DNA of 64,000 nt from Blastocatellia bacterium (GCA_025055075.1 JANWYV010000009.1:21876-85875); one strand, 5' to 3'; shown: positions 1,275 through 9,630, counted from the first letter of the stretch. A program made the numbers and translations. Notes: a model not told the origin generated them from the sequence alone.

Positions 1275-2288
1275 CTAAAATCCTCCATGCGTCTCGATGA
1301 ACGACAAGACCTCGGCCTCATACGGCATGAAGTTCGCGCAGCCGTGGCGCGTGACGATGATCGCCCCGCAGGCGTTTCCCATGCGCGCCGCGCGATACCA
1401 ATTCCACCCCTTCAGGTAGCCGTAGAGGAACCCGGCGGCGAAGGCATCTCCAGCGCCGAGGACATTGAGGACCTCGACGGGAAACGCGGGAGCGACGATC
1501 ACGTCTCCTTGAGCCAGATGAACGGTCGCGCCTTCGGCCCCGCGCTTCACGATGAGCGCTCGTGGGCCGCGCTCCAGAAGCATTCGAATCGCTCGGTCCA
1601 CTTCGCCTGCGACGTGAGATTCGGAGATCTGCGCATGCTCGATGTGGACGTCTTCCGCTTCCACAAGAGCCGCCGCTTTCACCTCATTCACGGTCCCGAG
1701 CACCACGTCCACAAGCGGCAGGACCAGGCGGATCGTCACTCCATACCCGCGCACATCGTGCCAGAGCGTGGGGCGAAAATCCAGGTCGAGGAAGACCTCC
1801 GTGCCGTGCGCTCGCGCGCGCTCGGCGGCAAAGAGCGTCGCGCTGCGGCTGGGTTCCCGGCTGAGACCCGTTCCGCTGATGAGCAACACGCGGCTCTCCG
1901 CGATCGGAGCTGCCAGGACATCATCAATGGTCAGCTCCATATCCGCGCAATTGTCGCGATAGTAGACCAGCGGGAAGCGATCCGGTGGCTCGACGCCCAG
2001 CAACACGGCGCTCGTTCGACGCCCCGGCTTTCGCGGAATGAACCGCGTCTCGACTCCCTCTCGCTCCAGGAAGCGCAAGACGAAATCCCCCACAAGATCG
2101 TCTCCGACAGCCGTCAGCAATGCGGAACGTAATCCCAATCGTCGCGCCCCCACGCTGATGTTGGTCGGACATCCCCCGACATAAGCCGCGAAGCTCTTGA
2201 TCTCCGGGAACGGCGCGCCGATGTCGGCGGCATAGAGATCAATCGAGCTGCGCCCCATGGCGAGAAGATCGTACCGACGCTCCGTCAT
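1275..2288 (-). CDS. iolC: 5-dehydro-2-deoxygluconokinase (PfkB family)
   Basis: 337-aa ORF with PfkB ribokinase-like features (DLLAMGRSSIDLY..., C-terminal GAGDAF motif). Sits between iolB and iolD. Confidence 0.8.
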   Translation of the reverse strand: MTERRYDLLAMGRSSIDLYAADIGAPFPEIKSFAAYVGGCPTNISVGARRLGLRSALLTAVGDDLVGDFVLRFLEREGVETRFIPRKPGRRTSAVLLGVEPPDRFPLVYYRDNCADMELTIDDVLAAPIAESRVLLISGTGLSREPSRSATLFAAERARAHGTEVFLDLDFRPTLWHDVRGYGVTIRLVLPLVDVVLGTVNEVKAAALVEAEDVHIEHAQISESHVAGEVDRAIRMLLERGPRALIVKRGAEGATVHLAQGDVIVAPAFPVEVLNVLGAGDAFAAGFLYGYLKGWNWYRAARMGNACGAIIVTRHGCANFMPYEAEVLSFIETHGGF

Positions 2289-2306
2289 CGCATTCCTCTT
2301 CGTCTT

Positions 2307-3158
2307 TCACCGCACGAGCGGGACGCGCGGATCTTTCTCCGTCCATGTCGTGCGCACCCACGCATGGGTTGGATCATCGGAGGCCGCCATCGAACGCGCG
2401 CTTCCGGCCAGCGCGTTCAAGTAATAGACGTTGTACCCATGCGCGGCTACGACCGGATGATACCCTTCCGGAATCAACACCAGGTCGCCATCCCGGACCG
2501 TGAGCGTCACGTCCCGTCGTCCGTCCGCCGTGTAAATGCGTTGGATGGCATACCCCTCCGGACGGTCCACCTTGTAGTAGTAAATCTCCTCCAGGTCGAC
2601 TTCCTCCGGCGGGTTGTGGACATCGTGCTTGTGCGGAGGATAGCTCGACCAGTTCCCGCTGGGCGTGTAGACCTCGACGATCATCAGCCGATCGGCGGGA
2701 AAGTCAGGTGTGAGGATGTGATTGATCTGTCGAGTCGCGTTTCCACCACCCCGAATTTCGATCTGGACATCTTCGGGAGAGATCAGTCGAGCTGGAAAGG
2801 CCTTTTCAGCGCGGGCTCGACAAAAGGCCAACTCGCCATCGGTCTCGGCCATGACCGTGTAGGAGGTGCCGATGGGGAGATATAGGGCCGTCGGGAGCCC
2901 ATCGAAAACGTGTGCACGCGCGCCAATGTGCGACCACGAACCCACCGAAGAGTGAACCGTGAAGCGCCCGCCCAGGATCACGATCCCCAATTCATCGCGC
3001 CCTGTCTGCCCAGAGACCGTCTCTCCAGCAGTGAATGCGCGCACGGAGAAGCTCAGGTACTCGAATCCTACGGCTTCCGGAGTGATGGAGATGCGTTCTC
3101 CCGTCTTTCCCTCCAGAGGACGCGGCCGGATGAGCAAATCATGAGCGAGGGTGGACAT
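2307..3158 (-). CDS. iolB: 5-deoxy-glucuronate isomerase
   Basis: 283-aa ORF with an IolB-like cupin region (SSYPPHKHD...EEIYYYK). Adjacent to iolC. Confidence 0.8.
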   Translation of the reverse strand: MSTLAHDLLIRPRPLEGKTGERISITPEAVGFEYLSFSVRAFTAGETVSGQTGRDELGIVILGGRFTVHSSVGSWSHIGARAHVFDGLPTALYLPIGTSYTVMAETDGELAFCRARAEKAFPARLISPEDVQIEIRGGGNATRQINHILTPDFPADRLMIVEVYTPSGNWSSYPPHKHDVHNPPEEVDLEEIYYYKVDRPEGYAIQRIYTADGRRDVTLTVRDGDLVLIPEGYHPVVAAHGYNVYYLNALAGSARSMAASDDPTHAWVRTTWTEKDPRVPLVR

Positions 3159-4173
3159 GCTCCTCCTCCTTTCGTGGCGGGGCCGTCGAATTTCGAATGA
3201 TCAACTCGCCTTGCACCCAAATCGTCTGCTGGGAGTTCTCTCCCTTGAGGAGTTGCAGCAGTAGTGACATCGCTCGCCGTCCCATCTGTCGTTTCGGTTG
3301 GCGGATTGTCGTCAACGGGGGCTCCGTGTATGAAGCGATGAAGAGATCGTCGAATCCGACGAACGAGATGTCCTCTGGAACGCGAAGTCCTCTCATGCGC
3401 GCGACGCGCAACGCGCCAAGAGCCGTCATGTCGTTGTAGCAGAAGACGGCCGTCGGCATCGGAGCGAGTGCCAGCAATTGCTCCATCGCCCGCATCCCCC
3501 CTTCTGGCTTCCCGTCACCGTGAACAACCAGTTCCGGTTGAAACGTGAGCCCCGCGCGCTCGAGCGCCTGACGGTATCCGGCGAACCGTTCAGTGTCGGA
3601 TTGATACCCGAATTGATCGCCGATGTACGCGATGCGTCGGTGGCCAAGCTGAATGAGATGCTCGGTGGCCACTCGACTGGCCGTGACGTTATCAATCATG
3701 ACCGAATGAACGAATTCGCCAGGGTGTTGATTATTGATGAGCACGATCGGGACCTTCATCTCGCTCAAATGGTCTATATAGAGTGCCCCGACGCGCGAAG
3801 CCGTGACCAAAATCCCATCCACACGTCGTTCGTGAAACGAATGAACGACCTTGATCTCGCGATCCGGATCGGCATTGGAATTCGCCAAGAAGACCGAATA
3901 GCCATGATCATTGGCGACCTCCTCAATGCCGCTGACGACCTCGGCGATGAACGGATCAGCGATCGTCGTGACCACAACCCCAATGGTCCTGGTCTTCTTA
4001 GTGACCAGGCTGCGAGCGACGGCGCTCGGCCGATAGCCCATCTCCTCGGCAATTCGGCGAATGCGTTCGGCCGTCTCGCGGTTGACGAGTGGGCTATTGT
4101 GCAGGGCCCGCGAGACCGTTGAGTGAGAGACCTTCGCTACGCGCGCGATATCTTTGATCGAGACCGTACTCAT
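3139..4173 (-). CDS. LacI/GalR-family transcriptional regulator (likely regulator of the iol genes)
   Basis: N-terminal HTH MSTVSIKDIARVAKVSHSTVSRALHN followed by a periplasmic-binding-protein-like sugar-binding core. The track start (4185) is a GTG. ATG 4173 gives the canonical LacI N-terminus. The 3' end overlaps the iolB start by 20 bp. Confidence 0.85.
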   Translation of the reverse strand: MSTVSIKDIARVAKVSHSTVSRALHNSPLVNRETAERIRRIAEEMGYRPSAVARSLVTKKTRTIGVVVTTIADPFIAEVVSGIEEVANDHGYSVFLANSNADPDREIKVVHSFHERRVDGILVTASRVGALYIDHLSEMKVPIVLINNQHPGEFVHSVMIDNVTASRVATEHLIQLGHRRIAYIGDQFGYQSDTERFAGYRQALERAGLTFQPELVVHGDGKPEGGMRAMEQLLALAPMPTAVFCYNDMTALGALRVARMRGLRVPEDISFVGFDDLFIASYTEPPLTTIRQPKRQMGRRAMSLLLQLLKGENSQQTIWVQGELIIRNSTAPPRKEEEHVHPRS

Positions 4174-4180
4174 GGCCGGT

Positions 4181-4194
4181 TGCACACGTTTTCA
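4181..4194. promoter_or_regulatory. Candidate LacI-family operator (imperfect 14-bp palindrome with central CG)
   Basis: TGCACACGTTTTCA lies 8 bp upstream of the regulator ATG. 5 of 7 half-site pairs are complementary. It resembles the generic LacI/GalR operator TGnAAnCGnTTnCA. Confidence 0.35.
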
Positions 4195-4270
4195 GCCATC
4201 GGCTAAAGAAAAACTTCGAGAATTACTCGCTGAGACCGTTTCCTCACCGCGCCCTCCGTAAGAGCCCCTT

Positions 4271-4298
4271 ATCATACTCCGAATCTCTGGCTTGTCAA
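4271..4298 (-). promoter_or_regulatory. sigma70-type promoter for the LacI-iolBCD unit
   Basis: Minus strand reads TTGACA (4298-4293), a 16-bp spacer, then TATGAT (4276-4271). Confidence 0.5.
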
Positions 4299-4312
4299 GG
4301 CCGAAAAAATCC

Positions 4313-4340
4313 TTGACATCGAGCGGGATTCGTCTATAAT
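4313..4340 (+). promoter_or_regulatory. Consensus sigma70-type promoter for the TPR-HTH / mini-protein unit
   Basis: TTGACA (4313-4318), a 16-bp spacer, then TATAAT (4335-4340). It sits back to back with the divergent promoter 14 bp away. Confidence 0.6.
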
Positions 4341-4348
4341 TCTCCTTG

Positions 4349-4380
4349 CGATCGTTGAGGTCAATGATCGTGAACGATCG
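4349..4380 (+). promoter_or_regulatory. 8-bp inverted repeat in the leader of the TPR-HTH gene (operator or leader hairpin)
   Basis: CGATCGTT (4349-4356) and AACGATCG (4373-4380) are perfect reverse complements separated by 16 nt. The repeat lies just upstream of RBS GAGGGGAG. Confidence 0.4.
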
Positions 4381-4392
4381 TCGAGGGGAGTC

Positions 4393-5817
4393 ATGAGGGC
4401 GACGAAGGTTCGAGAGATCACGCTGTTAGAGCAGGCCATCTTCTCCGGGCGATTCCGGGAAGCGGAGCGGATAGCCGAGGAGGTCTCGCCGGCTGACTTG
4501 CGGTCAGCGGCTGCAAAGGCGCAGGTTTTGATCTACAAAGGGGAGTTAGAGGAGGCGGGGAAGCTTTTCGAAGCGTTCGAGAAGCGGCTTACGGAAGCGA
4601 GTCTGAAGGAGGCAGCCGAATTCGGTCTAGCGAAAGCGGAGTGGCACTATTGGCGGGGCGAGTACGAAGAGGCCAAGCGGCAGGCGCAAGTCGTCTTCGG
4701 GATCTACAGTCTCAATCGCGATCATTTCGGACTGGCACGCGCACTCTATGTGTTGGGGCGGGTGTATCGGCGTCAGGGCGATTACGAGCAAGCGCGGCAG
4801 GAGATGCTGCGTGCCCTGGAGGAGACGGAGGCCGTTGCGGATCGGCCGACGACGTTCCTAATCGGGCTCATCACTTTCAACCTGGGCGTCGTTCATTATT
4901 TTCTGGGGGATCTGGTTCGGGCGGAGGAGGAGTTACTGGCGGCCATTCGTGCTCTTGAGGTGGAGCGAGGTCGGTATTATGGCAATGCCTTGAACTTCTA
5001 CGGGACGCTGCTGATCGGAAAAGGAATGTACGAGGAGGCAGCGCGAATCATTCAAGCGGCGTACGAATGCTTGGCCGAGAGCGCGTTCTTCGACGACTTG
5101 GCGCATGCGACGAATAACCTGGCCTACGCGTGCCTCCGTATGGGGCAGTTCGAGCGCGCGGCGCGGTTGCTGGAGGAGAGTCTGGAGCTGCGCCGCCGGT
5201 CGAAAGATATTGCTGGAGAGTCGGCGACGCTGGAGCTTTTCGGACGGCTGCGCTTCGAGCAGGGGCAGTTATCCGAGGCGGAGGCCATCCTTCGGCAAGC
5301 CATCGAGTTGGCGGAGTTGGGGAAGAATCCGCACGAGAAGGCAGTCGCCGCAATCACTCTGGGGCGTGTGCTTATGGCGCAGGGGCGATGGGAGGAGAGC
5401 CAGCAGCTTCTGGAAGAAGCCTTGGACCTAGCTCTGCAATTGAAGAATAAGTCGCTTCAGGCCGAGAGCCATGCGTATCTGGCGGAGCTATGGGTGCATC
5501 GAGGCAACGGGATGCAGGCGCTTGAACATCTCAGGCGGACGAAGACGTTGATCAACGGATATCGCGATGCCTATCTGTTCGCGCAGATCGAGCGAATCGA
5601 ACAGTTAGTGCAACAGCAGCGGATCAAGGCCGAGGAAGGGATCTTCATGATCCGAAGCAGCTTCTTACCCACATGGCGAGAGGCCCACGAGATGCTGGGG
5701 AAGTTCCTCTTGGCGGAAGCGTTGCGGCATGCTGGTGAGAACCAGACGAAAGCCGCCGAGCTGCTCGGCGTCACGAAAGCCTATATCACGATGCTGCGGA
5801 AGAAGTATGGGATTTGA
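4393..5817 (+). CDS. TPR-repeat protein with C-terminal Fis/NtrC-type HTH (HTH_8); no AAA+ or receiver domain
   Basis: 474 aa. TPR-like helical repeats throughout (e.g. ARALYVLGRVYRRQGDYEQARQEMLRALE). The C-terminus GENQTKAAELLGVTKAYITMLRKKYGI aligns with the Fis C-terminal HTH (GNQTRAA...KKYG). RBS GAGGGGAG. Confidence 0.75.
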   Translation: MRATKVREITLLEQAIFSGRFREAERIAEEVSPADLRSAAAKAQVLIYKGELEEAGKLFEAFEKRLTEASLKEAAEFGLAKAEWHYWRGEYEEAKRQAQVVFGIYSLNRDHFGLARALYVLGRVYRRQGDYEQARQEMLRALEETEAVADRPTTFLIGLITFNLGVVHYFLGDLVRAEEELLAAIRALEVERGRYYGNALNFYGTLLIGKGMYEEAARIIQAAYECLAESAFFDDLAHATNNLAYACLRMGQFERAARLLEESLELRRRSKDIAGESATLELFGRLRFEQGQLSEAEAILRQAIELAELGKNPHEKAVAAITLGRVLMAQGRWEESQQLLEEALDLALQLKNKSLQAESHAYLAELWVHRGNGMQALEHLRRTKTLINGYRDAYLFAQIERIEQLVQQQRIKAEEGIFMIRSSFLPTWREAHEMLGKFLLAEALRHAGENQTKAAELLGVTKAYITMLRKKYGI

Positions 5818-5832
5818 AAGGAGGGCTCAGGT

Positions 5833-6198
5833 ATGAGGAAGCTTCTCGGGATCGCGTTCCTCGTGTTCTTGCTTGGAACTCTCACCGTGCCTGCGGATGC
5901 AGGGGTCACGGCTGGTGGAAGACCGTATCTTCCTGGAGAAGACTTGCCGGTTGGGGGAGTGACGGCTGGAGGCCGACCTTTCGTCCCCGGTGGGGGAGTA
6001 TTCACCCCAACGGGCTTCGGCTTTGGCGCCCAGTTCTATGATGAGGGATGGGAGGCCGAATCGAATCCCTATTGGGGCGGGGGCGGATGGAGTGATCTGA
6101 TATGGTGGCCCTCTTGGTCTTGGTTCGGATGGGGACTATTTGGTGTCCTCGATTTCCTCTTTGGTCTTCCCGCCAGCTTTTTCTTCTTCCTCTACTGA
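5833..6198 (+). CDS. Small secreted/membrane-tethered repeat protein (hypothetical)
   Basis: 121 aa. Strong RBS AAGGAGGG 7 nt upstream. Signal peptide MRKLLGIAFLVFLLGTLTVPADA. Two tandem 18-aa units follow, then a Gly/Trp/Phe-rich hydrophobic tail (WWPSWSWFGWGLFGVLDFLFGLPASFFFFLY). Confidence 0.6.
   Translation: MRKLLGIAFLVFLLGTLTVPADAGVTAGGRPYLPGEDLPVGGVTAGGRPFVPGGGVFTPTGFGFGAQFYDEGWEAESNPYWGGGGWSDLIWWPSWSWFGWGLFGVLDFLFGLPASFFFFLY
5902..6009 (+). repeat. Tandem 54-bp (18-aa) coding repeat, 2 copies
   Basis: GVTAGGRPYLPGEDLPVG (5902-5955) and GVTAGGRPFVPGGGVFTP (5956-6009). The first unit starts exactly after the predicted ADA signal-peptidase site. Confidence 0.8.
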
Positions 6199-6202
6199 AG
6201 GA

Positions 6203-6240
6203 GGCGCGGTTCCGAGAGTGGCCCCCCTCGGGGCCGCGCC
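6203..6240. terminator. GC-rich hairpin between convergent genes (possible bidirectional terminator)
   Basis: GGCCCC (6220-6225), loop CCTC, GGGGCC (6230-6235). Flanked by GGCGC (6203-6207) and GCGCC (6236-6240). Lies between the mini-protein stop and the phoR stop. Confidence 0.4.
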
Positions 6241-6246
6241 CGAGAT

Positions 6247-7383
6247 TTATCCACTCATTGCCGCATCGGTTGAGGCCTCTGCCTGCGCAGCTTTTGGCTC
6301 AGGAGCTGCCCTCAAGCTGAGGATGAATTCCGAACCGACTCCCGGTTCGCTCCTGACGCGAATTTCCCCTCCATGGAGTTGGACGAGATGCTTCACAATG
6401 GCCAGGCCAAGGCCGCTTCCTCCGGTCTCCCGGGATCGGGACTTCTCACTCCGATAGAAGCGCTCGAAGATCCGAGGTTGATCGGCTGGAGGGATGCCGA
6501 TCCCTGTGTCGGCGATCGAGATCTCTATATGCTCCCCCAGGCGGCGTGCGCGAACCCAAACATGACCGCCGGGGCGGTTGAACTTCACGGCATTATCCAA
6601 AAGGTTCTGCAGGATCTGGGTCAAGCGGAAGGGATCGGCCAGCACGTGAATCTGTTCGGGGACTTCGTTCACGATCGTAATGCCGCGCTCTTGCGCTTGC
6701 AGCCGAGTCAACTCCAGGACTTCCTCAACGGAGGCATGCAATGGAATCGCCTCTAGCGAAAGCGTGATCGCGCCTGACTCGATCTCTGCCAAGTCAGTGA
6801 TATCCCGCACCAGGGCATGGAGCCGTTGCGCCTGACGAAAGAGACCATCTAGGCAACGGCGCACGTGCTCGGGATCATCCAGTCCGGTCTCCTGTAACGT
6901 CTCAACGTAAGCGAGAATGGCCGCCAGCGGCGTACGCAGCTCGTGTGAGAGGTTAGCGAAGAAGTCGCGCCGTATACGTTCCAATCGCTCTAAAGCGGTG
7001 ATCTCTACGAAGACGCCCAAGGCAGCTTGCGGCATGTTGGAAACGATGCGGAGCGGGGCAATCCTGGCCTGAAATGTACGCGGTTCGCCGCGGCGCAGCT
7101 CGAAGCGCAACTCGACGGAGGCGCCATGCTCGAGCGCTTGTTGGAAGCCCTCGTGCAGCGTGGGATCGCGGGTGAGATCAATCAATCGAATGGGACGAGA
7201 GGAGAGCGGCGGTGGGGGGAAGATCTCAGCCGCTGCCGGATTTTGAACGAGGACGGTCATCTCCCGGTCCACGACAAGCACCCCTTCCCGCATGGCAGCC
7301 AGAATGGTCCGCCACACGGGATGGGCGGCATGGACCAACTCGTGAAAAAGCTCACGATCAGCGCTTTCTTCGGCAAGGCTCAC
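6247..7383 (-). CDS. phoR: Phosphate-regulon sensor histidine kinase (PAS + HisKA + HATPase_c)
   Basis: H-box FFANLSHELRTPL, N-box LLDNAVKF, G-boxes DTGIGI and GGSGLGLAIV. GTG start overlaps the phoB stop (GTGA). Confidence 0.8.
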   Translation of the reverse strand: MSLAEESADRELFHELVHAAHPVWRTILAAMREGVLVVDREMTVLVQNPAAAEIFPPPPLSSRPIRLIDLTRDPTLHEGFQQALEHGASVELRFELRRGEPRTFQARIAPLRIVSNMPQAALGVFVEITALERLERIRRDFFANLSHELRTPLAAILAYVETLQETGLDDPEHVRRCLDGLFRQAQRLHALVRDITDLAEIESGAITLSLEAIPLHASVEEVLELTRLQAQERGITIVNEVPEQIHVLADPFRLTQILQNLLDNAVKFNRPGGHVWVRARRLGEHIEISIADTGIGIPPADQPRIFERFYRSEKSRSRETGGSGLGLAIVKHLVQLHGGEIRVRSEPGVGSEFILSLRAAPEPKAAQAEASTDAAMSG

Positions 7384-8086
7384 AGCGAAGTATCGAAAGG
7401 TCCTTGTGATCGGGGGCGGAAGCGATAGCCGATGCCGACGACCGTCTCGATGTACCCTTCAACGCCGAGCTTCTTCCGCAGATTGCGCACGTGCACATCG
7501 AGCGTGCGCGTATCGCCATAGTAGGCGAGACCCCAGATGCGATCCAGCAGATATTCGCGCGTGAGCGTGCGACCGGGATTGCGCGCCAAAAGGGCGAGTA
7601 ACGCGAACTCTTTTCGGGTCAACCGGATCTCGCGCCCCTCGACCTTCACGATGAAATGCGCCGGATCCAGATAGAGCGTCCCATCATCATAAACGAACGC
7701 CGGCTCTTCCTCCTCCTGAGTCCGGCGCAGCAGGGCTTGCAGTCGCGCCTCCAGCTCGCGCAGGCTGAAGGGCTTGGTCACGTAGTCGTCCGCTCCGAGG
7801 TTCAACCCGAGGACCTTATCTGATTCGCTCGTCCGCGCTGTGAGCAAGAGGATCGGCAACCGGCGCGTCGCGCTCTCTGAGCGCAGGCGGCGGCACAGTT
7901 CGAATCCATTCATCTCCGGGAGGTTCACGTCGAGAATGAGCGCGTTTGGGCGCCGTCGAGCGAGGGCCCGCAAGCCTTCCTCGCCCGTCAGGGCGATCTC
8001 CACCTCATATCGCCCTCCGCGTTCCAAATGTTGCTTGAGCAGATGAGCCAGTTCGGCGTCGTCCTCGATGATCAAGATCGTCGGCT

Positions 8087-8090
<4 letters not shown>
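7380..8090 (-). CDS. phoB: OmpR/PhoB-family response regulator
   Basis: Receiver MKPTILIIEDD...LDVNLPEMNG plus a winged-helix C-terminus (...IETVVGIGYRF). ATG 8090 overlaps the phoU stop by 4 bp (ATGA). The track start 8102 is also possible. Confidence 0.9.
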
Positions 8091-8764
<674 letters not shown>

Positions 8765-8787
8765 GCTGCCCTCTCCTTCCTTCCCCT

Positions 8788-9630
8788 TCATCCGAAGCGC
8801 CCCGTGAGATAATCTTCGGTCAACTTCTCACGCGGCACCGTGAACAATTTCTCCGTTTGATTGAATTCTACAAGACGGCCCAACCAAAGGAAAGCCGTGT
8901 AATCGGAGACGCGAGCGGCCTGTTGCATATTGTGCGTGACGATGATGATCGTGTAGTAGCGCTTCAACTCCGCGATCAACTCCTCGATCTTCTCGGTGGC
9001 GATCGGATCTAGGGCCGAGGCCGGTTCATCCAGGAGCAAGACCTCCGGTCGCACGGCCAGCGCTCGGGCAATGCAGAGCCGTTGCTGTTGTCCTCCGGAG
9101 AGCGTGAGCGCCGATTCGTGTAACCGATCCTTGACCTCATCCCAGAGGGCGGCTTGACGCAAGCTCTCCTCGACGCGCTCATGCAGCTCTCGCTGATTGC
9201 GCACCAGCCCGTTCACTCGCAAGCCATAGGCGACGTTCTCAAAGATCGTCTTCGGGAAGGGATTCGAACGCTGAAAGACCATGCCCACGCGTCGCCGCAA
9301 GCGCACGACATCTACCTGCGGATCGTAGATGTTCTCTCCGTCCAAGAGGATGCGTCCTTCCGCGCGCGTGTCTGGAATGAGATCGTTCATGCGATTGATG
9401 GCGCGCAACAACGTCGTCTTCCCGCATCCTGAGGGGCCGATGAGGGCTGTCACCTTGTTCCGCGGGAACCCCAACGTGATGTCGTGCAAGACCCGGGCGT
9501 CCCCATAGTAGAAGCTGAACCGCTCGACCTGGACTTTCACCGGCATCGTTTGCTGCTCGGCCGCGTGCATCTCAGCGGCCCCCGATCTCGAAGCGTTCTC
9601 TTTGAGCAGCTCGACTCTTGGCCGCACCAT
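8788..9630 (-). CDS. pstB: Phosphate ABC transporter ATP-binding protein
   Basis: Walker [10 protein letters not shown], signature LSGGQQQRL, Walker B LLLDEP. The true start may be an internal Met (MHAAEQ...). Confidence 0.9.

Follow-up and report, generated by a model that had tools for sequence, protein, structure and literature searches.

The window, as we call the whole stretch of 64,000 nucleotides analysed here, comes from a Blastocatellia bacterium (GCA_025055075.1 JANWYV010000009.1:21876-85875). Its positions 4393-6198 carry two genes, one for a 474-residue regulator made of tetratricopeptide repeats (TPRs) with a C-terminal helix-turn-helix (HTH), the other for a 121-residue mini-protein with a predicted Sec signal peptide and a duplicated short motif. 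The pair resembles a peptide-signalling pair and stands outside any described family; its host is a hot-spring acidobacterium. An original prediction, made from the sequence alone, had placed the two open reading frames (ORFs) at 4393-5817 and 5833-6198, and re-reading gave the same coordinates. The features on which the interpretation is built, located by profile searches, AlphaFold2 (AF2) models and orthologue comparison, are as follows.

4393-5817, plus strand: regulator ORF, 474 aa, TPR repeats and then the C-terminal HTH
4393-5622, plus strand: TPR superhelix domain, aa 1-410, about 10 helix pairs (Pfam, AF2, Foldseek)
4888-4890, plus strand: codon of V166, in the motif FNLG-V, TPR position 9, beside the invariant N163 (covariation with motif residue 4)
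5623-5817, plus strand: putative C-terminal DNA-binding module, aa 411-474, ending ...LLGVTKAYITMLRKKYGI and then the stop (AF2 and weak profile matches)
5818-5825, plus strand: Shine-Dalgarno sequence AAGGAGGG of the mini-protein gene (sequence reading)
5833-6198, plus strand: mini-protein ORF, 121 aa, with its ATG at 5833, 15 nt past the regulator stop
5833-5901, plus strand: predicted Sec signal peptide, aa 1-23, MRKLLGIAFLVFLLGTLTVPADA (orthologue conservation and AF2)
5902-5937, plus strand: repeat 1, GVTAGGRPYLPG, aa 24-35, the predicted mature N-terminus (orthologue comparison)
5956-5991, plus strand: repeat 2, GVTAGGRPFVPG, aa 42-53, with the same 8-aa core as repeat 1
5992-6111, plus strand: Gly/aromatic-rich region, aa 54-93, predicted disordered (AF2 pLDDT below 50)
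6112-6198, plus strand: C-terminal hydrophobic aromatic helix, aa 94-120, SWSWFGWGLFGVLDFLFGLPASFFFFL, then Tyr121 and the stop (AF2 and orthologues)

The regulator, a cytoplasmic protein, is built wholly of TPRs up to a C-terminal HTH. Its residues 1-410 contain neither a signal peptide nor a transmembrane segment, match Pfam TPR_12 (E=1.6e-32) and TPR_MalT (E=1.3e-17), and form about 21 helices in the AF2 model (18 homologues; pLDDT 91.3, pTM 0.83), which agrees with the earlier description of TPRs almost end to end. Pfam and NCBIfam scans detected no AAA+, receiver or sigma54 module, likewise as first described. Invariant polar residues in the alignment columns include R116, R123, N163, H238, N241, N242 and E281. 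When the TPR model was searched with Foldseek, LGN and OGT came out on top by E-value and NprR/Rap ranked 39 and below; by TM-score, NprR and Rap were among the best global superpositions (TMt 0.73-0.74). A full-length profile run against solved structures retrieved generic TPR proteins only, with no match to Rap, NprR, PlcR or AimR.

At the extreme C-terminus, AF2 places a beta-hairpin (residues 411-420) in front of a three-helix HTH unit (428-446, 451-458 and 462-472 of 474 residues; helix lengths of 19, 8 and 11 residues) with the recognition helix last. This block is the best-conserved part of the regulator family and closes with the pattern ...AA.LLG[IV]t+..l..lRKKyGI-COOH. On this reading of sequence and model the module is an HTH, weakly typed by its profile scores: Pfam HTH_8 (PF02954) gives E=0.0097 and 16.1 bits, under the gathering score of 22, and the NCBIfam Fis model NF001659 gives E=0.002 and 18.8 bits against a cut-off of 99. 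A profile of the last 63 residues finds the NtrC DNA-binding domain 1ntc at 1.5e-3, the Fis-like 6m10 at 0.04 and Fis at about 0.5, with the XRE-like HTH 2a6c slightly ahead of 1ntc (8e-4 vs 1.5e-3), and precomputed PF02954 matches exist on three homologues (P0008-P0010). The original prediction of a Fis/NtrC-type HTH thus stands as to the C-terminal HTH itself and is weakened as to type by the low HTH_8 score and the slightly better XRE-like match. Its place at the terminus and its ...LLGVTKAYITMLRKKYGI ending agree with Fis/NtrC, and we therefore accept a Fis/NtrC-like type as probable.

The last ~45 residues match Fis and the NtrC C-terminal domain (HTH_8) weakly but consistently, and the terminal pattern, the helix lengths of 19/8/11 and the preceding beta-hairpin are shared features; in contrast to the HTH_8 family, the scores lie under the curated cut-offs and an XRE-like HTH does equally well. 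Unlike NtrC-family enhancer-binding proteins, the regulator has no receiver, AAA+ domain, sigma54-interaction module or GAFTGA, and for want of the AAA+ domain it is not an enhancer-binding protein. Descent from TPR-AAA+-HTH_8 enhancer-binding proteins (P0026, P0037) was considered and rejected, as the likeness is limited to the TPRs and the C-terminal profile could not be aligned. The order of N-terminal sensor repeats and C-terminal DNA-binding domain is that of the MalT/LAL and SusR regulators, with TPR_MalT matching at 1.3e-17 and NCBIfam SusR matching the TPR part at 9e-9. However, STAND/NOD ATPase, LuxR/GerE HTH and membrane segment are all missing, and since the curated cut-offs are far off (SusR 35 bits vs 480; MalT NF003420 13 bits vs 537), the protein belongs to neither group.

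The second gene is, as originally described, a 121-aa ORF 15 bp downstream with a strong ribosome-binding site (RBS); AAGGAGGG lies at 5818-5825 and the ATG at 5833. Its product begins with a basic and then hydrophobic stretch ending in ADA, and the same layout, a basic n-region, a hydrophobic h-region and an AxA just before repeat 1, is recognisable by sequence in all 20 orthologues, so that the mini-protein is predicted to be exported via Sec. In the AF2 model, of low overall confidence, residues 2-17 and 94-120 are helical and residues 18-93 disordered; pLDDT is below 50 at residues 18-96 and 60-68 in the C-terminal helix. A hydrophobic C-terminus is kept in all orthologues, with an aromatic last residue in most, and the Gly/aromatic-rich region (aa 54-93) is conserved solely within the window clade. 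Judged from the model, the C-terminal helix is probably a membrane anchor without a cytoplasmic tail. Two other readings of the tail, a PEP-CTERM-like C-terminal sorting signal and an outer-membrane-protein beta-signal, were both rejected from the sequence, which shows neither a signature motif nor a basic cluster and is hydrophobic throughout. Pfam and NCBIfam returned no family match for the mini-protein. Both ORFs are in the same frame, with just one TGA and five codons (K-E-G-S-G) in between; as the shared frame recurs in the related loci L001, L003, L005 and L013 but not in L012 and L021, it is probably incidental.

Both families are small. Among 5.8 billion proteins the regulator has 19 close relatives with 46-94% identity, beyond which come generic TPR matches only, and it forms about 20 clusters; where a source is named, it is 'bacterium HR08/HR10', 'uncultured Blastocatellia' or 'Acidobacteriota'. 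The mini-protein forms 8 clusters, and its profile, searched against 1.84 billion representatives, returned 8 matches, one of them spurious, which indicates a narrow family; the members found in this way keep the same architecture. Thirty loci were gathered from genomes and metagenomes, and pairing was counted in the 28 with at least 700 bp downstream. A small ORF of 102-128 aa with the same architecture lies downstream of the regulator in 28/28 of these loci, at regulator identities of 46-100%, with gaps of 4-258 nt (15 nt in the window). The pairing of the regulator gene with a small signal-peptide-type ORF, which had been proposed as a check, therefore holds down to 46% identity. The genes flanking the pair vary among loci (pho, CBS/POR, TonB-type receptor, NAD kinase). 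Purifying selection acts on the ORF, which is thus a genuine gene, and the pair is best explained as an operon for signalling that is specific to the lineage of Blastocatellia-type Acidobacteriota. In L014 (8606-12016) and L016 (8610-12104), the gene after that of the mini-protein encodes a large CarboxypepD_reg/TonB-dependent-receptor-like outer-membrane protein; present in this one subclade and not conserved elsewhere, it could matter for outer-membrane uptake.

The two tandem repeats of the original prediction were found again as cores of 8-12 aa starting at residues 24 and 42, and across orthologues the first copy always lies directly past the AxA site. In the 18 two-copy orthologues, the 8-aa cores are identical at 7.1/8 positions within proteins vs 4.4/8 between them, and 13 distinct cores occur (e.g. 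GVTAGGRP, GVTMGGKP, GVTNGGRP, GQTHGGRP, GQSQGGRP, RESHAGRP, REGHTGRP and RDTHAGRP). The two cores of the window are equal in protein and differ synonymously in 6/8 codons; over 20 loci, comparison of copy 1 with copy 2 gave 108 synonymous, 15 non-synonymous and 37 identical codons. Because the copies differ mostly at synonymous sites, selection must keep them alike and gene conversion is excluded, and because both copies change in parallel between lineages, a single co-evolving partner is required. The repeat region is the functionally constrained portion of the mini-protein.

A lead to that partner comes from the regulator itself, in which residue 166 is a candidate specificity residue. The pairs of motif residue 4 and regulator residue 166 are A/V, M/G, N/E, H/A and Q/A, and column 166 alone is invariant inside each of the GVTA and GVTM classes, different between them and of at least 4 states. 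In the TPR register, position 8 is occupied by A80, G122, G165, G204, A244, G284, G324 and A364, which puts N163 at position 6 and residue 166 at position 9; we take these to be canonical groove positions, by analogy with Hop TPR-peptide complexes, and they are placed by register, not by coordinates. A covariation of the repeats with the TPR concave surface, one of the checks first suggested, has a candidate in column 166 and motif residue 4, a post hoc and kinship-confounded pattern whose groove placement comes from the register.

Reading genetically encoded peptide signals with cytoplasmic TPR receptors is seen as a trait of Bacillota and their phages. Acidobacteriota, for their part, are abundant and poorly studied, and are generally regarded as diderm. 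The RRNPP signature comprises a receptor of 250-500 aa and a propeptide of 10-100 aa (validated propeptides, 21-50 aa) encoded by direct neighbours at -60 to 400 bp; the propeptides are exported via Sec (or PptAB), the mature peptide is usually C-terminal, and duplication of the signal motif is reported inside Phr propeptides (Bernard et al. 2023, PMC10075063). In RRNPP systems, which occur in Bacillota and on their phages and plasmids, the mature peptide is taken up again through Opp and bound by the TPRs of the receptor. With its 474 aa the regulator is inside the receptor range, and the gaps of 15 nt in the window and 4-258 nt over the 28 loci fall within the neighbour distance. The pair shares with the RRNPP systems (Rap-Phr, NprR-NprX, PlcR-PapR, PrgX, AimR-AimP, Rgg-SHP) a cytoplasmic TPR receptor of 250-500 aa with a fused HTH and a directly adjacent, co-directional gene whose product has a predicted Sec signal; the duplicated putative signal motif recalls the Phr propeptides, and the overall TPR superhelix superposes on NprR and Rap (TMt 0.73-0.74). 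It differs in that no sequence-level relationship was found, generic TPRs scoring better; in an HTH that is C-terminal and Fis/NtrC-like, not N-terminal and XRE-type; in motifs at the mature N-terminus, not the C-terminus; in the additional extracytoplasmic function (ECF) sigma gene and tiny Cys-peptide genes of the ancestral cassette described below; and in a host from Acidobacteriota, not Bacillota. No RRNPP-specific Pfam or NCBIfam model matched the regulator. As the HTH is of another type and sits elsewhere, the mini-protein is too long for a propeptide and appears to be anchored in the membrane, and a homology signal is missing, the system is analogous to RRNPP, neither homologous to it nor a member. 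The RRNPP-like layout of the original prediction is upheld in receptor length, adjacency and pairing, and falls short in propeptide size, HTH and RRNPP profile matches; the pair may nonetheless follow an RRNPP-like peptide-sensing logic. In the literature we found nothing relevant on RRNPP-like systems in Acidobacteria or diderms, nor on regulators combining TPRs with a Fis-type HTH.

We tentatively favour the reading in which the mini-protein is the regulator's cognate partner, not mere cargo, and its duplicated motif is read by the TPR groove. Short extended peptides bind TPR grooves, and a small partner whose gene is co-transcribed with that of a regulator usually modulates this regulator. 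According to this scenario, (i) the regulator would be a cytoplasmic one-component transcription factor, with the ~410-aa TPR superhelix as sensor and a short Fis/NtrC-like HTH as output domain, probably dimerising as Fis and NtrC domains do; (ii) the mini-protein gene would be co-transcribed with it from a consensus sigma70 promoter; (iii) the mini-protein would be exported via Sec, largely disordered, and probably held in the inner membrane by its C-terminal helix; (iv) the two equal 8-12 aa motifs (GVTAGGRP...) at the mature N-terminus would form a short linear element for the TPR groove, which would read them either after proteolytic release and re-uptake, as in RRNPP systems, or on the precursor before export; and (v) occupancy of the groove would set the activity of the HTH at its own promoter region and at other targets. 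The ancestral form would be a cassette of the pair with divergent tiny Cys-peptide genes and an ECF sigma gene, split in the window lineage.

Several points weigh against this reading. The motifs would be exported and the regulator is cytoplasmic, so that release and passage across the inner membrane are needed, and across the outer membrane as well for true quorum sensing; a conserved protease or Opp-type permease was not found in the neighbourhood of the compared loci. The partner of 121 aa (102-128 aa in orthologues) with its conserved C-terminal hydrophobic helix differs from RRNPP propeptides, and the anchor helix leans towards a stable integral membrane protein, which the original prediction had named, together with the lack of a released peptide, as refuting it. 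The two most distant mini-proteins (L018:2070-2417 and L033:4499-4840; regulators at 46-48%) carry a single motif copy, GDTHGGGP, which suggests that the motif duplication arose inside the family. The covariation of residue 166 is post hoc and phylogenetically confounded, and columns 383 and 407 likewise separate A from M types, making three columns in all. The co-evolving partner of the motifs could instead be an unlinked periplasmic protein, and the HTH_8 match stays below its gathering score.

Such an unlinked partner is at the centre of the alternative that survives best, which we consider somewhat unlikely: the TPR-HTH protein would sense another partner, a metabolite or the tiny peptides, and the mini-protein would be a co-expressed envelope protein that exerts no feedback, an anchored disordered protein whose twin motifs dock on an unlinked periplasmic partner. 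The conserved hydrophobic C-terminal helix and the disordered periplasmic region suit an envelope resident, no transporter or protease is linked, regulators commonly adjoin their targets, and the gap reaches 98-258 nt in distant loci, so that a separate promoter may drive the small gene in them. However, the order of regulator and then small gene is kept in 28/28 loci despite rearranged flanks and the loss of the other cassette half, a groove residue covaries with the motif, and the parallel change of the copies needs a co-evolving partner, for which the adjacent gene is the most parsimonious candidate.

The other cassette half bears on a further alternative. In every locus with a regulator below 70% identity and upstream sequence, one to four tandem genes for tiny peptides lie divergent to the regulator gene (ORFs outside the window at L012:5450-5754, L013:5345-5782, L016:5209-5754 and L021:5346-5781), usually followed in the same direction by an ECF sigma gene. 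Members of this peptide family also lie next to an ECF sigma gene at L035:6001-6111 (HR10) and L038:6001-6255 (HR08). The peptides have 32-39 aa and are of the ...GSCPIPGISQ type (e.g. MRTQHGQLDLAVLLLALLALIPLITSGSCPIPGISQ and MKKISNQIGQADLILLILAVVLALSTLVGCPIAP); a basic start leads into the motif G-Q-x-D and a hydrophobic helix, and a small-residue site then precedes the Cys of C-P-I-x(1-5) before the stop. G-Q-x-D and Cys are invariant, and the copy in L033 is degenerate. A profile of these peptides retrieved 39 clusters, all tiny, including HRbin08_00668 and HRbin10_00658 and annotated as 'hypothetical' at most; they could be lipopeptides, pheromone precursors or mini membrane proteins. The ECF sigma factors gave generic ECF matches only, the published ECF reclassification contained no group with a matching context, and no group was assigned. 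The arrangement is reminiscent of SigY-YxlCDE and ECF31, in that the relatives' ECF sigma gene is co-oriented with one to four genes for tiny single-helix peptides and has no adjacent canonical anti-sigma gene; it differs in that only ~10 residues precede the helix of the tiny peptides, which leaves no room for an anti-sigma domain, and in that the ECF sigma gene lies outside the window. A likeness between the tiny-peptide tail PGVTQ and the repeat start GVTAGG fails across lineages and was judged coincidental.

In the window, the pair is flanked on the left (1275-4185) by genes for a PfkB-family kinase, IolB and a LacI-family repressor, and on the right (6247-9630), convergently, by genes for a PAS-HisKA kinase (PhoR-like), an OmpR-type regulator (PhoB-like), PhoU and PstB. 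A tblastn search and a regex scan of the window in six frames found no tiny-peptide or ECF genes. In HR08 and HR10, which belong to the window clade, the tiny gene or genes and the ECF sigma gene lie between groES/groEL and DHOase-yceD-rpmF-plsX-fabH-fabD, at a locus separate from the pair, so both cassette halves are retained in these genomes. The left flank of this locus is also the left flank of the complete cassette in L012, L013 and L021, and L012 has, in addition, the right flank of the window (pho genes). Because flanks are shared in this way, the window shows a derived state, in which a rearrangement has disrupted the divergent intergenic region and brought the iol/LacI genes up against the regulator gene. 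The isolated two-gene module between iol and pho, as first described, is thus real in the window and derives from a larger cassette.

The tiny Cys-peptides, encoded with the ECF sigma factor at a distant locus, might themselves be the true ligands, with the mini-protein as an accessory or output. We regard this as decidedly unlikely. They would act either as exported and processed peptides or lipopeptides of 5-8 aa, or as N-in membrane proteins that tether the regulator by a cytoplasmic tag. Their adjacent, divergent position in every more distant locus with upstream sequence speaks for such a role, as do the 39 clusters with members in HR08 and HR10 and their retention by the window's close relatives after the cassette was split; in size and basic-then-hydrophobic layout (secretion judged by eye) they also fit the RRNPP propeptide criteria better than the 121-aa ORF does. 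In contrast, it is the N-terminal GQxD and the Cys that are conserved, not the C-terminal tail. The tails within L016 (CPIPAR, CPISF, CPIAFGR and CSIVP) vary in length and sequence, and therefore do not fit one receptor with a single pheromone. The window clade can dispense with linkage to the regulator, linkage to the ECF sigma gene is usually kept, and the lipobox is non-canonical.

Secretion-coupled control, in which the TPR domain holds the unexported precursor in the cytoplasm and export frees the regulator for DNA, appears very improbable. TPR class II chaperones of type III secretion, IpgC and SicA, bind translocators, and such a mechanism would solve the topology without re-import, would match a probable regulator dimer to two motifs, and would draw on co-translation of both genes from one mRNA. 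Against it, Sec substrates leave fast, a fusion to a Fis-type HTH has no precedent, and the first motif lies right at the signal-peptidase site, a position well suited to a free mature N-terminus. Chance or faulty annotation could also be invoked for the small ORF or for its repeat, in view of the missing Pfam/NCBIfam match and the low AF2 confidence, but is refuted by conservation over 28 loci, the synonymous codon excess, the strong RBS and the family members of the same architecture.

Returning to the reading of the mini-protein as cognate partner, what is new here is a variant of the TPR one-component regulators that is confined to a narrow lineage of Acidobacteriota and has an exported repeat protein as its proposed cognate partner. 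A fuller version, which we regard as quite unlikely in all its parts, is a convergent, RRNPP-analogous peptide signalling in Acidobacteriota, in which a two-copy pro-pheromone would be clipped, re-imported and read by the TPR groove with residue 166 as specificity determinant, wired ancestrally to the ECF sigma factor and the tiny Cys-(lipo)peptides. If true, this would be, to our knowledge, the first cytoplasmic TPR receptor with a cognate encoded signal outside Bacillota and mobile elements; it would widen the range of peptide communication to Acidobacteriota and provide a natural series of ligand/receptor specificities, with 13 motif variants each accompanied by a matching regulator. If the mini-protein is partner or cargo only, three features would still be undescribed: the TPR and Fis-type HTH architecture without AAA+, the selection for equal motif copies that diverge between lineages, and the linked unit of tiny Cys-peptides and ECF sigma factor. 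As the family is narrow (about 20 regulator clusters; 8 small-protein representatives among 1.84 billion), the impact would be conceptual, not broad.

The regulatory region in front of the pair and the 3' end contain the following elements.

4313-4340, plus strand: sigma70-type operon promoter, TTGACA (4313-4318), 16-nt spacer, TATAAT (4335-4340), scan score 12/12
4271-4298, minus strand: divergent, back-to-back promoter TTGACA-16-TATGAT facing the LacI-family gene, scan score 11/12
4341-4392, plus strand: leader with inverted repeat, conserved box and Shine-Dalgarno sequence GAGGGGAG (4383-4390) (folding and alignment)
4349-4380, plus strand: leader inverted repeat CGATCGTT (4349-4356) / AACGATCG (4373-4380) (folding)
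6203-6240, plus strand: GC-rich hairpin with a 14-bp stem between the convergent mini-protein and phoR-like genes (folding)

The scan bore out the consensus promoter TTGACA-N16-TATAAT of the original prediction, and both hexamers, together with the upstream GAAAAAATCC, are conserved among the aligned loci of the window clade. The inverted repeat of the leader, claimed there as well, is present and folds at -26.7 kcal/mol (z=-4.1), but its structure is not conserved beyond the nearest relatives: RNAalifold detected no conserved RNA structure in the leaders of 9 clade members (-0.28 kcal/mol), so that the repeat is lineage-local. At the DNA level, the clade has conserved a box, TTGAGGTCAA-N5-GTGAAC at 4355-4375, which lies downstream of the -10 hexamer and ahead of the RBS and is a possible candidate operator. 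A sequence GTCAA...AAACGA in L012 resembles this box. The GC hairpin after the small gene, also foreseen, has a predicted energy of -29.3 kcal/mol (z=-2.96) and lacks a U tract; as there is no T run, we do not call it an intrinsic terminator.

The cassette split can be traced by comparing window positions 4186-4392 with 5755-6000 of L012, L013 and L021 and with 5764-6000 of L035 and L038. The breakpoint lies in the divergent promoter region: in relatives, the tiny-peptide promoter takes the position of the divergent 4271-4298 promoter, and this leftward promoter (4298-4271) now serves the LacI-family gene. The GTCAAG-A-rich arrangement at the divergent promoter is also found in L012, L013, L014 and L021. 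In a metagenome contig with 93% identity (L024:1-179), the upstream context changes just before GAAAAAATCCTTGACA, which points to the same spot having been rearranged a second time, independently. Just upstream of the -35 element of the tiny-peptide/ECF promoter, three direct GTTAATTT(T) repeats are present in HR10 (L035:5890-5960) and HR08 (L038:5885-5960) and may form an activator site; the equivalent region is A/T-rich in distant loci.

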